Shown piece after piece: positions 24,800 to 55,200 of a stretch of 64,000 nt of DNA. This DNA is from Escherichia coli 042 (GTDB lineage: Bacteria > Pseudomonadota > Gammaproteobacteria > Enterobacterales > Enterobacteriaceae). Positions within the stretch are counted from its first letter, which is position 1. Each line of letters opens with the position of its first letter. The position numbers and the translations under genes are program-made. The notes beneath the pieces were generated by a model, which was not told the DNA's origin, did no database searches, and saw only the letters and a list, made by a program, of their open reading frames with translations. Location: assembly GCF_000027125.1 (NCBI RefSeq), contig NC_017626.1. The stretch is one strand, 5' to 3'.

Positions 24800-24954
24800 T
24801 GCAAGGGAACTTTTTAAGATTATTGCGGAATGGCGAAATAAGCACCTAACATCAAGCAATAATAATTCAAGGTTAAAATCAATAACTTATTCTTAAGTAT
24901 TTGACAGCACTGAATGTCAAAACAAAACCTTCACTCGCAACTAGAATAACTCCC

Positions 24955-25047
24955 GCTATCATCATTAACTTTATTTATTACCGTCATTCATTTCTGAATG
25001 TCTGTTTACCCCTATTTCAACCGGATGCCTCGCATCCGGTTTTTTTT
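24955..25047 (+). ncRNA. micF: MicF antisense sRNA (represses ompF)
   Basis: Sequence GCTATCATCATTAACTTTATTTATTACCGTCATTCATTTCTGAATGTCTGTTTACCCCTATTTCAACCGGATGCCTCGCATCCGGTTTTTTTT recognised as micF; ends with terminator hairpin plus T-run; TAGAAT -10 box 7 bp upstream; divergent from ompC. Confidence 0.85.
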
Positions 25048-28704: not shown

Positions 28705-28897
<193 letters not shown>

Positions 28898-28902
<5 letters not shown>

Positions 28903-41668: not shown

Positions 41669-48557
<6,889 letters not shown>

Positions 48558-48663
48558 AGCAAAACTTTACCGCGCCCTAATACGACAAAAGCCCAGACTT
48601 TGCAGCCTGGACTTTTCAATTCAAACAAGGGAGATAGCTCCCTTTTGGCATGAAGAAGTAAAA

Positions 48664-51291
48664 TTATTCTTCTTCTGGCTCGTCGTCAACGTCCACTTCC
48701 GGAGCGATTTCATCGTCCCCTTCCGCGGCACTGCCGTCGATGGTATCCAGATCTTCCTCGTCAACCGGTTCAGCAACACGTTGCAGACCCACTACGTTTT
48801 CATCTTCCGCAGTACGGATGAGGATCACGCCCTGGGTGTTACGGCCCACGATGCTGATTTCCGAAACGCGAGTACGTACCAGCGTACCGGCATCGGTGAT
48901 CATCATGATCTGGTCGCAGTCATCTACCTGCACCGCGCCAACCACTAAACCGTTACGTTCGGTAACCTTGATGGAGATAACCCCTTTCGTCGCACGCGAC
49001 TTAGTCGGGTATTCCGCCACTGCGGTACGTTTACCATAACCGTTCTGCGTTGCGGTGAGGATTGCGCCATCGCCACGAGGCACGATCAGAGAGACGACTT
49101 TATCGCCTTCGCCTAAACGAATACCGCGAACACCGGTGGTGTTGCAGCCCATCGCACGGACAGAAGACTCTTTAAAGCGCACCACTTTACCTTCGGCGGA
49201 GAACAGCATTACTTCGTCTTCGCCGCTGGTCAGGTCAACGCCGATCAGCTCATCGCCTTCAACCAGTTTGATCGCCACTTTACCGGCGGTACGCAGACGG
49301 TTGAACTCGGTGAGGACAGTTTTCTTCACGGTACCGTTAGCGGTCGCCATGAAGACTTTCACGCCCTCTTCAAACTCGGTCACCGGCAGGATGGCAGTGA
49401 TACGTTCGTCCTGCTCCAGCGGCAGCAGGTTGACGATCGGACGACCGCGCGCGCCACGAGTGGCTTCCGGCAACTGATAGACTTTCATCGAATAGACGCG
49501 ACCACGGCTGGAGAAGCACAGAATATGGTCGTGGGTGTTCGCCACCAGCAGTCGGTCGATAAAGTCTTCTTCTTTAATACGTGCGGCAGATTTACCTTTC
49601 CCGCCACGACGCTGCGCTTCGTATTCAGAAAGCGGCTGATACTTCACGTAGCCCTGGTGAGAGAGCGTCACGACCACATCTTCCTGAGTGATCAGATCTT
49701 CCAGGTTGATGTCGGCGCTGTTGGCGGTGATTTCAGTGCGACGTTTGTCACCGAACTGTTCACGAACCAGTTCCAGCTCTTCGCGGATCACTTCCATCAG
49801 ACGATCGGCACTGCCAAGAATACGCAGCAGTTCTGCGATCTGATCCAGCAGCTCTTTGTATTCGTCGAGCAGTTTTTCATGCTCAAGGCCGGTCAGTTTC
49901 TGCAAACGCAGATCCAGAATCGCCTGAGCTTGCTGTTCGGTCAGGTAGTACAGACCATCACGCACGCCGAACTCTGGCTCCAGCCATTCCGGACGCGCAG
50001 CATCGTCGCCCGCACGTTCCAGCATGGCGGCAACGTTGCCCAGCTGCCACGGATTAGCAACCAGCGCAGTTTTCGCTTCTGCAGGCGTCGGCGCATGACG
50101 GATCAGTTCGATGATCGGGTCGATGTTCGCCAGCGCCACGGCTAATGCTTCAAGGATATGAGCACGATCGCGAGCTTTACGCAGTTCGAAAATAGTACGA
50201 CGGGTCACCACTTCACGGCGGTGACGAACAAACGCCGCGATGATGTCTTTCAGGTTCATGATCTTCGGCTGACCATGGTGCAATGCCACCATGTTGATAC
50301 CGAAAGAAACCTGCAACTGGGTCTGGGAGTAGAGGTTGTTAAGCACAACTTCACCGACCGCGTCGCGTTTCACTTCAATCACGATGCGCATACCGTCTTT
50401 GTCAGACTCGTCACGCAGCGCGCTGATGCCTTCCACGCGTTTTTCTTTTACCAGTTCCGCAATCTTCTCGATCAGGCGCGCTTTGTTTACCTGATACGGA
50501 ATTTCGTGGACGATAATGGTTTCACGTCCGGTTTTTGCGTCAACTTCCACTTCGGCACGGGCGCGGATATATACCTTGCCACGACCGGTACGGTAAGCTT
50601 CTTCAATACCGCGACGACCGTTAATGATTGCCGCCGTCGGGAAGTCCGGCCCCGGGATGTGTTCCATCAGCCCTTCAATGCTGATGTCTTCATCATCGAT
50701 ATACGCCAGACAACCGTTGATGACTTCCGTCAGGTTGTGCGGCGGGATGTTGGTTGCCATACCTACGGCGATACCGGAAGAACCGTTCACCAGCAGGTTA
50801 GGAATTTTGGTTGGCATGACGTCGGGAATTTTTTCCGTGCCGTCATAGTTATCAACGAAATCGACCGTCTCTTTTTCGAGATCGGCCATCAGTTCATGGG
50901 CAATTTTCGCCAGACGGATTTCCGTATAACGCATTGCCGCCGCAGAGTCGCCGTCGATGGAACCGAAGTTACCCTGACCGTCTACCAGCATGTAACGCAG
51001 CGAGAATGGCTGCGCCATACGGACGATCGTGTCATAAACCGCCGAGTCACCATGGGGATGGTATTTACCGATTACGTCACCAACGACACGGGCAGATTTT
51101 TTATAGGCTTTGTTCCAGTCATTGCCTAGTACGTTCATGGCGTAAAGTACGCGACGGTGTACCGGCTTCAGGCCATCTCGGACATCCGGCAGCGCACGGC
51201 CAACAATGACCGACATCGCATAATCCAGATAGGAGCTCTTCAGCTCTTCCTCAATGTTGACCGGTGTAATTTCTCTCGCAAGGTCGCTCAT
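48664..51291 (-). CDS. gyrA: DNA gyrase subunit A
   Basis: 875 aa; N-terminal [36 protein letters not shown]; catalytic Tyr region; acidic C-terminal tail; QRDR reads GDSAVYD. Confidence 0.97.
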
Positions 51292-51437
51292 CTAACCGCT
51301 ATCCCTCTACTGTATCCCGGATTCAAAGGTCGCAAATTATAACACAGCCGCGCAGTTTGAGGTAAACCTATACGCTTTATTCACATCCAATGCCTGATAT
51401 ACTCGTTTGTCTTGCCAATTACGGAGTAGAAGTGCCA

Positions 51438-52160
51438 ATGAATGCCGAAAAATCGCCGGTAAACCATAACGTAGACCACGAAGAGATCGCTAAATTTGAA
51501 GCCGTCGCCTCCCGCTGGTGGGATCTTGAAGGTGAGTTCAAACCGCTGCACCGCATTAACCCGCTGCGTCTGGGCTATATTGCCGAGCGTGCTGGCGGTT
51601 TATTTGGCAAAAAGGTGCTCGATGTCGGTTGTGGCGGCGGCATTCTGGCCGAGAGTATGGCGCGCGAAGGTGCGACGGTGACCGGTCTGGATATGGGCTT
51701 TGAGCCATTGCAGGTGGCAAAGCTGCACGCGCTGGAAAGCGGCATTCAGGTGGATTACGTGCAGGAAACCGTGGAAGAGCACGCGGCAAAACATGCCGGG
51801 CAGTATGATGTGGTGACCTGCATGGAGATGCTGGAGCACGTGCCCGATCCGCAGTCAGTGGTCAGAGCCTGTGCGCAACTGGTGAAACCGGGCGGCGATG
51901 TCTTTTTCTCGACGCTTAACCGCAACGGCAAGTCATGGCTGATGGCGGTGGTTGGCGCGGAATATATTTTGCGCATGGTGCCCAAAGGCACGCACGACGT
52001 GAAGAAATTTATAAAACCGGCAGAACTGCTTGGCTGGGTAGATCAGACAAGCCTTAAAGAGCGACATATAACCGGGTTACATTACAACCCGATCACTAAT
52101 ACTTTTAAACTCGGCCCCGGCGTCGATGTGAACTATATGCTGCACACGCAGAATAAATAA
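51438..52160 (+). CDS. ubiG: Ubiquinone biosynthesis O-methyltransferase UbiG
   Basis: SAM-binding motif [12 protein letters not shown]; start set at [12 protein letters not shown] (240 aa) rather than upstream ATG of track ORF. Confidence 0.9.
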
Positions 52161-52167
52161 AATTGTT

Positions 52168-52197
52168 AGCCGGATAAGGTGCTCGCACCACATCCGG
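52168..52197. repeat. Single REP element between ubiG and yfaL
   Basis: gccggataaggtgctcgcaccacatccggc palindromic REP-like unit. Confidence 0.6.
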
Positions 52198-52220
52198 CTA
52201 CAATGCCGGGCGCAAAGCAG

Positions 52221-55200
52221 CTACCATTTCACCGTCATCGACAAAAACCCTGCCGTCTGGGCAAAATCATCACTCCCTTTCTGCCACGCCACGCTGCCGC
52301 GCAGCGAAACTCGCTGACTGATATTGCCCGTGACTCCCACTTTTATTTCACCCCGTTGCTTCACCGCATCGTCACTGATAGTGCTGCCATCTTCTTCAAT
52401 TTCCGTCGCATGGGGATCGTGATAATAATTCAGATCTAATGTTGGTATGACATGAACAGCGGTACGCCATTCGCTGTGTAAACCCAGCCGCGTTTGAATA
52501 TCATCACCCTGCGATTGTGACACGCGCGCATGGTTAGCGGCGGTAAAATCATCCTGCTGCACGCCCTGATAAATCACCTGCGCCTGCGGTTCAACCACCA
52601 CACCACGCCCCGGTAACCACTGATACCCCGCTTCCAGCGAGGCGATAATCCCCGACGAATGGTAATGATCTGTGCCATCGTCTTGTTCGGAAACATCATT
52701 GTTAAACCACGCGTATTGCAGCCAGCTATCCAGCCAGGCCCCCTGCTTCTGATTACCGTGCTGAAACCAGCTTGAGGTCAGACCAACGGCATAACCGTGG
52801 TTCTGGTTATCGGCGCGAGTTCCGGTCATATTCGAGCGGCTGTCGCCCTGGTTATCACTGTAGCCACCAACCGCCCCAAGCATCCACTCGCCATCCGCGC
52901 CCCAGCGCCCGCTAAACAAGTCGCCGCTAAGCTGCACCGTAGAAGTGTCTTCATGCTGAGCCAGTTGCCCCGCTGCTGTGTAATGATAATTTCCGCCGAT
53001 AACACGTAAATTCAGCGTCTGACCATCGCCACCAGCGTGATCGTGTCGCTCCATCACAAACGCCTGATTTGCCGCCCGCAGGTTATTAAAATATCCACCA
53101 ACTTTGGCATTCAACACCGGCTGGTAGGCAGGCGTAGGGTCCGGGGCCGGGTCGGGTGTTGGATCAGGATCGGGAGTCGGGTCTGGATCAGGTGGCGATG
53201 GTGGCGTTACTTCTTGCGATCGCAGATACCAGTCGTTGTTATCTTCCACCAGCGTGTAGTCATACGCTCCCATATTGACGTAGCCGCTGCCTGCCAGACT
53301 GAACTGCGCATTGTTTTGAAACTGCGTGGGATCAGCTGCGAAATCAACCACTTTAATGCCTGTCGATGTCGGCTCACCAATCCCTGTAATGGAGTTAACC
53401 ATCACAGTTGTGTTGCCAGCAGTATTACCGTTCATCACCAATTGATCGCTTACCGAGTCATCGCCGTTTAATTCGCTATCGAGCAGTAGCGTACCACCGC
53501 CGGTATAATCACCGTTTACCGTCAGCGTATCGCCAGCGACGCCATTTTGCAGGCTAACCGCACCAGACGTATTGGTCAGATTGCCATTAACCGTCACGTT
53601 GGAAAGATAAGTCAGGCTGTCAGTTTCAAGGTTGGTATTAAGCTCGCCTGTCAACGTCACGCCATCGGTGGCATTCACCAGCGTCCCATCGCCGTTAAAC
53701 AGTGAGGCATTAAGGGCGACGGAAGTATCCTGCCCGGTCAGGCGCAAAACCGTACCATCGCTGATGTCGATAGTGCCGCTGGAAGTAGCATCAATTGACT
53801 GAATATCCTGATCCGCGCCAGTCTTGAATGTTGCCCCGTCACCGACCCACAGCGACGAAGCATAAGGGAAGATATCCGCAACATCACCTTTCAGGGTGCC
53901 TTCTTCGACACGTACCGCCGACTGCGTTGTACCGCTGGCGGTCAGTTCCAGCGTACCCGCCCCCGTTTTCGTCAATGTGCTACCCTCATCCTGATGCTGC
54001 CCGCTGCTGTCAGCCATCAGTGCGCCCCACTGCGTGTCTACCCCCGCATCAACTGCCACTTCACCGTCGGCGCGCATTTCAATATCACGCCCGTGACCTG
54101 CTGCCTCTGAACGAGTATCAACGTCAGCGGTAATTTCCATCTCACTTTGTTGTTGGCTATCAGTAAAGATGAGCTGACGGTTTTCGTCGGTATTGCCAAG
54201 CTGCGAGTTGTCGCTCACCACCAGCGTACCGGAAGCGATTTGCGTGGTGCCCAGGTAACTATTATTGTTTGCCAGGCTAACCAGCCCGTCGCCCGCATCG
54301 ATCACCACGTAGACGCCATCTTTCTCGTCGCCGCCGATATGCAAATTGTCGCCACCTGCGAGATCCACCACATCCTGACTGCCGATAACCGTACCGCCGC
54401 TGCCGCTGACTGCAAGGCCATCGTTGTATGATGTGCCGCTCTGCCAGGTGGCGAAATCAGAGAGATCAAGCACGCCGCCGTTTAACACGATCGACTGCGG
54501 ATCGTCCTGGAGAGCGGCAAGATCTGCCGCGTCGCCTTCCAGCGTAAGCACCGCGCCATCATCAACGACTATATCGCCAGTTAGCGCCATCGACTGAGCC
54601 CCTGCCAGCACGTAGCTGCCGTTTTGCGCAATGGTGAGCTGACCAGCACCTTCGATGGTGCCAGCAAAACTGCCCTGATTAACAGTAACGTTGCCACCAG
54701 CATCGATATTTAAAGTGCCATTCTGAAAGCCCATCAATGCGTGCACAAAAGTTTGTTGGGTCGAGCCAACGTTTAGCTCAGCCTGATTCTGATACTGATC
54801 AATACTCCCTATCGTCAGACCGTAGCAGTCTTGCGTATCGTCCTGGCAATGCGTATCGCCGACATTCATCAGGGAGTTGCTGCGGCCCAGGGTAACTTCA
54901 CCGTTTTCAATCTGCATCTCGCCAGTAAAGTCATTGTTATCTGCATTAAGTACCAGATCGCCGGAACCTGTTTTGGTGATTAACCCGGTACCAGCAATAG
55001 AGTCAACAGCTCCGTCATTCTCTGTATTGCCGATAACCAGCGTTTTTCCGTCGGCAATATCAAAGGTAACGTCACTTAAGCCGAGATACATAAAGCCACC
55101 CGCCGCAGTGGAAGGACCATCTCCATAGCCTGCTGCGCTATTGTTCTCATCCACTAAAACACCGTTGTTCTGGCTGTAGCTGTCATCAACTGAAATATCA

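Follow-up and report, generated by a model that had tools for sequence, protein, structure and literature searches.

Substitution of GyrA residue Ser83 or Asp87 (S83L or D87N/G/Y) is the usual first step to quinolone resistance in Escherichia coli, and the question raised by the gyrA locus in the window, i.e., the whole 64,000-nt stretch of E. coli 042 DNA analysed here (contig NC_017626.1), is whether this step has been taken. The answer depends on the identity of the gene, on the exact numbering of its codons, and on the meaning of its single amino acid difference from the K-12 protein. Taken together, the evidence makes it almost certain that the locus represents the gyrA gene in an E. coli chromosome and encodes the ancestral, drug-sensitive quinolone-binding site, and nothing in the sequence was found to contradict the reading as a wild-type gyrA.

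The identity of the gene was established from the open reading frame, its translation, alignments, and profile scores, and three features are relevant here:

48664..51291, minus strand: gyrA coding sequence, DNA gyrase subunit A, 875 codons plus stop (open reading frame, translation, alignment, and profile scores)
50926..50928, minus strand: codon TAT of the catalytic Tyr122 (codon table)
49594..49614, minus strand: GyrA box QRRGGKG, residues 560-566 (motif read in the translation)

This is the sole long open reading frame across the region; it starts with an ATG at 51291, and its 875-amino-acid product aligned without gaps to E. coli GyrA in PDB entry 6RKS (1-875 to 1-875), with D678E as the sole difference. 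The protein scored 1309.7 bits against the NCBIfam equivalog TIGR01063 (gyrA; cut-off, 877), and the Pfam profiles placed the DNA_topoisoIV breakage-reunion domain at residues 32-507, followed by the six DNA_gyraseA_C blades of a six-bladed beta-pinwheel C-terminal domain, as in gyrase A. Both local hallmarks of this subunit are in place, i.e., Tyr122, the tyrosine that becomes covalently linked to the cleaved DNA, and the GyrA box, which tells gyrase A from ParC and is required for DNA wrapping and supercoiling. The neighbouring genes show the canonical synteny yfaA-gyrA-ubiG-yfaL known from K-12, and the gyrA DNA of the window found a match, annotated as gyrA, in 5,425 of the 5,426 complete E. 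coli genomes. GyrA is thus full length and intact in the window, and with 874 of 875 residues shared with the biochemically characterised E. coli enzyme it would be expected to introduce negative supercoils together with GyrB.

The position of every codon follows from the start codon, since codon n occupies 51291-3(n-1)-2 to 51291-3(n-1) on the minus strand; codon 83 is therefore located at 51043-51045 and codon 87 at 51031-51033. The quinolone site comprises two nested features:

51031..51045, minus strand: codons 83-87, Ser-Ala-Val-Tyr-Asp, TCG GCG GTT TAT GAC (direct read and translation)
50974..51093, minus strand: quinolone-resistance-determining region (QRDR), codons 67-106 (codon-by-codon table against K-12 b2231)

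Read on the minus strand, 50950-51350 contains catccccatggtgacTCGgcggtttatGACacg, in which Ser83 is encoded by TCG and Asp87 by GAC, the wild-type allele. All amino acids of the QRDR, whose limits we take to be those of Yoshida et al. (1990), are identical to those of K-12, and its three nucleotide differences are silent (V85 GTC>GTT, R91 CGC>CGT, and Y100 TAT>TAC; window positions 50992-51039). The other positions with reported resistance substitutions, namely A51, A67, G81, D82, A84, Q106, A119, and A196, are likewise wild type. The preliminary description had read codon 83 as TCG and codon 87 as GAC within the context GDSAVYD, and the base-by-base codon table against K-12 b2231 reproduced both codons exactly; the heptapeptide corresponds to residues 81-87, and translation of 51031..51045 on the minus strand gives SAVYD. 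The numbering holds as well, because the realignment to 6RKS and K-12 b2231, which share start and length with the protein of the window, excludes the miscount that had been considered as a source of error. The reported absence of S83L (TTG) and D87N/G stands with the codons TCG and GAC, and the designation as a quinolone-susceptible configuration is supported for GyrA only, by the K-12 identity of residues 67-106 and by 152 susceptible isolates and 1 resistant isolate with a GyrA that differs from K-12 only by D678E (PMC7067475).

A structural rationale for the role of the two codons is available, as Ser83 and Asp87 both anchor the water-metal ion bridge of E. coli gyrase, with a mainly positioning role (PMC9917921; see also PMC3632122). 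The two residues, which are located on helix alpha-4, hold the water molecules of the Mg2+ ion that is chelated by the C3/C4 keto-acid of the drug; this bridge places the fluoroquinolone in the complex of gyrase and cleaved DNA and blocks religation. Substitutions S83L or D87N/G/Y break the bridge by loss of its anchors. With both anchors in place, the gyrase encoded in the window is predicted to be fully fluoroquinolone-sensitive, and the strain would lack the first target-mutation step toward resistance. For practical purposes this is a routine genotype call, useful in the resistance report of an isolate, which states that the first and most important chromosomal fluoroquinolone-resistance step is absent.

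The comparison with known alleles supports this assignment. K-12 MG1655 GyrA (b2231, NP_416734.1; structures 6RKS, 3NUH, and 1AB4) is identical at 874 of 875 amino acids and shares with the window the QRDR, Tyr122, the GyrA box, the acidic tail, the promoter, the leader, and the neighbouring genes. The two genes differ at 46 nucleotide positions (98.25% DNA identity), of which 45 are synonymous and one causes the replacement D678E. In resistant alleles (S83L and S83L+D87N; ST131-H30, ST405, ST410, and ST1193), codon 83 is TTG, alone or combined with AAC at codon 87, whereas the allele of the window has TCG and GAC; some of the resistant lineages have the same D678E background as the window. 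The allele of GyrA WP_001281251.1 from strains CB6837 and ECA64 shows 100% DNA identity across gyrA and the 109 nt upstream of it. The flank at 42664-47500 differs from CB6837 at 114 sites, so CB6837/ECA64 are not the same strain as that of the window. These 114 mismatches affect the alpha-2-macroglobulin gene, yfaT, and yfaA, and just 2 mismatches to CB6837 are present in 47500-57400, which covers gyrA, ubiG, yfaL, and the start of nrdA. Just downstream of gyrA, near 47000-47500, this abrupt change in similarity marks a recombination boundary.

The frequency of the quinolone-site haplotypes was determined with exact 33-mers over codons 79-89, which were searched by megablast in 5,426 complete E. 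coli genomes. The megablast word comprised 28 exact bases, so that a mismatch anywhere in the central 23 bases results in the loss of the match. The six 33-mers gave the following counts:

Wild-type core: V85 GTT 2,013 plus GTC 639, in total at least 2,652 (49%); the window has GTT
S83L+D87N: V85 GTT 1,371 plus GTC 331, in total 1,702 (31%)
S83L alone: V85 GTT 413 plus GTC 72, in total 485 (9%)

The other 587 of the 5,426 genomes (11%) have haplotypes beyond these six 33-mers, e.g., D87G/Y, S83A, or further silent variants. Of all single states, the wild type is the most frequent in this collection, in which resistant isolates of clinical origin are enriched. At codon 85, the GTT of the window outnumbers the K-12 form about threefold, in wild-type and S83L/D87N backgrounds alike. 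Chance is the wrong test for the finding of a wild-type site, because such a site represents the ancestral condition of an essential, conserved gene, with the same wild-type core in 2,652 of 5,426 genomes. The genotype call concerns the wild-type state of a well-known gene that is found in about half of the complete E. coli genomes; it was already known and adds no new biology. One plasmid-typed record in the E. coli collection matched gyrA and showed the S83L+D87N core haplotype; its replicon may have been mis-assigned, or the plasmid may carry a piece of the chromosome.

The single replacement is located outside the QRDR, in the C-terminal domain:

49258..49260, minus strand: codon 678, GAA (Glu), with GAC (Asp) in K-12 (alignment and codon table)

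D678E, the sole amino acid difference from K-12, has been reported as a lineage-associated polymorphism of ST405, ST38, ST448, ST2011, and ST1193, in which it occurs both together with S83L/D87N and without them (PMC10638923). Of the isolates with the allele designated gyrA-1, which differs from K-12 by D678E only and thus encodes exactly the protein of the window, 152 were susceptible and 1 was resistant, versus 179 and 2, respectively, of those whose allele is identical to K-12 (PMC7067475); the association of the variant with a susceptible phenotype is taken from this literature. D678E is most probably a neutral polymorphism that marks lineages.

Three other explanations have to be weighed against the ancestral, drug-sensitive GyrA. 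The residues would not be GyrA 83 and 87 if the numbering were off or if the gene were a paralogue, in particular parC. ParC, the subunit A of topoisomerase IV and secondary quinolone target, has an N-terminal breakage-reunion domain homologous to that of GyrA, in which Ser80/Glu84 form the equivalent bridge (PMC3632122); unlike the protein of the window, it lacks a GyrA box and has another C-terminal domain. The NCBIfam cut-offs, together with the GyrA box and the synteny, rule out that parC was mistaken for gyrA, and the score against the Gram-negative parC model parC_Gneg remained below its cut-off (581.5 versus 628.9 bits). A search of the window for a further gene of the gyrase or ParC type was negative, as HPHGD occurs once in the six-frame translation. 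With the gapless 6RKS alignment, the K-12 start and length, the NCBIfam cut-offs, the GyrA box at residues 560-566, and the single HPHGD, both misnumbering and a paralogue can be dismissed. The remaining two explanations accept the gene and its codons. According to one of them, D678E alters the C-terminal DNA-wrapping domain and thereby slightly shifts the supercoiling set-point or the fluoroquinolone response or tolerance of the lineages that carry it. This effect is the more doubtful of the two and highly improbable: D678E was the only GyrA change listed for one ST8070 strain after stepwise enrofloxacin exposure in a study that places it among the "recently discovered" resistance substitutions, but the listing comes without functional proof (PMC11721436). 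Moreover, the exchange of Asp for Glu is conservative and far from the drug pocket, entire lineages are fixed for the variant whether or not they carry S83L/D87N, and the allele that carries D678E alone was found in 152 susceptible isolates versus 1 resistant isolate (PMC7067475).

The other explanation concerns the strain rather than the protein. The "susceptible configuration" refers to GyrA only, since parC, parE, gyrB, efflux, and plasmid genes, all of which are located outside the window, contribute to the phenotype as well; a wild-type GyrA could accordingly coexist with a susceptibility that is reduced by determinants elsewhere. Candidates are the plasmid genes qnr, aac(6')-Ib-cr, qepA, and oqxAB, efflux via marR/acrR/soxR, and changes in gyrB/parC/parE. 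Resistant isolates with wild-type gyrA alleles do exist, but they are few (1/153, 3/640, and 2/181), and more than 98% of the isolates with wild-type alleles are susceptible (PMC7067475). The 64-kb window itself contains no parC, parE, or gyrB gene, no plasmid quinolone-resistance gene, and no efflux-regulator gene. From base 85 on it is collinear with ordinary chromosomal DNA from other E. coli strains, whose annotation includes no acquired resistance gene. High-level quinolone resistance of E. coli almost always includes a change at gyrA codon 83. A contribution of such outside determinants is therefore rated as quite unlikely, and the reading of the locus as a wild-type, drug-sensitive gyrA is retained.

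The signals that flank the gene are also relevant for its expression:

51336..51344, minus strand: TGTTATAAT, extended -10 element, putative gyrA promoter (direct read)
48627..48644, minus strand: terminator-like hairpin with a weak T tract, 20 nt past the gyrA stop codon (consensus match only)

We presume that TGTTATAAT is the gyrA promoter described by Straney et al. (1994). A generic -35/-10 scan did not flag the gyrA promoter, as would be expected if its -35 element were weak. The 139 nt upstream of the ATG, including TGTTATAAT, are identical to K-12, and because promoter and leader are identical, the expression of gyrA should match that of K-12. Terminator-like sites are no more numerous in the region than in shuffled sequence.

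The wider window has an ordinary chromosomal arrangement. The best full-length megablast identities with complete genomes were 98.3% for 39001-64000 and 99.1% for 85-25000. The gene order from base 85 is yejO, narP, ccm, nap, eco, mqo, yojI, alkB-ada, apbE, ompC, micF, and rcsDBC, and it continues with atoSCDAEB, yfaPQ, the alpha-2-macroglobulin gene (yfaS in K-12), yfaT, yfaA, gyrA, ubiG, yfaL, nrdAB, yfaE, and inaA. The first 84 positions form an AT-rich segment without an equivalent in the best-matching E. coli genomes, whose alignments begin at position 85 within the 3' end of a tRNA-Pro gene. Positions 86-100 (ctctcgtggccaaaaa) resemble a degenerate tRNA-Pro 3' end; a tRNA search of the window called none. 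This arrangement suggests that an island or prophage is integrated at proL and that its right junction is located at the left edge of the window.

At the opposite end, the MFS transporter gene next to inaA (61345-62535, minus strand) differs by one base from its 396-amino-acid counterpart in SCU-105; the change converts Gln292 into a stop codon at 61660-61662 and leaves an open reading frame of 291 amino acids, so that the gene is likely a pseudogene. The adjacent open reading frame of a LysR-family regulator (62687-63424, plus strand) encodes 245 amino acids versus 292 in SCU-105, which results from a 484-bp deletion relative to SCU-105 that starts inside the 3' end of the gene, with its junction at 63421. 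The Rfam search detected the MicF antisense RNA upstream of ompC (24954-25047, plus strand; 116.8 bits) and three copies of the REP-type element naRNA4 in the intergenic regions rcsB-rcsC (28708-28898) and nrdA-nrdB (58999-59069). The many additional short matches per genome in the megablast search with 39001-64000 are probably due to the REP copies.
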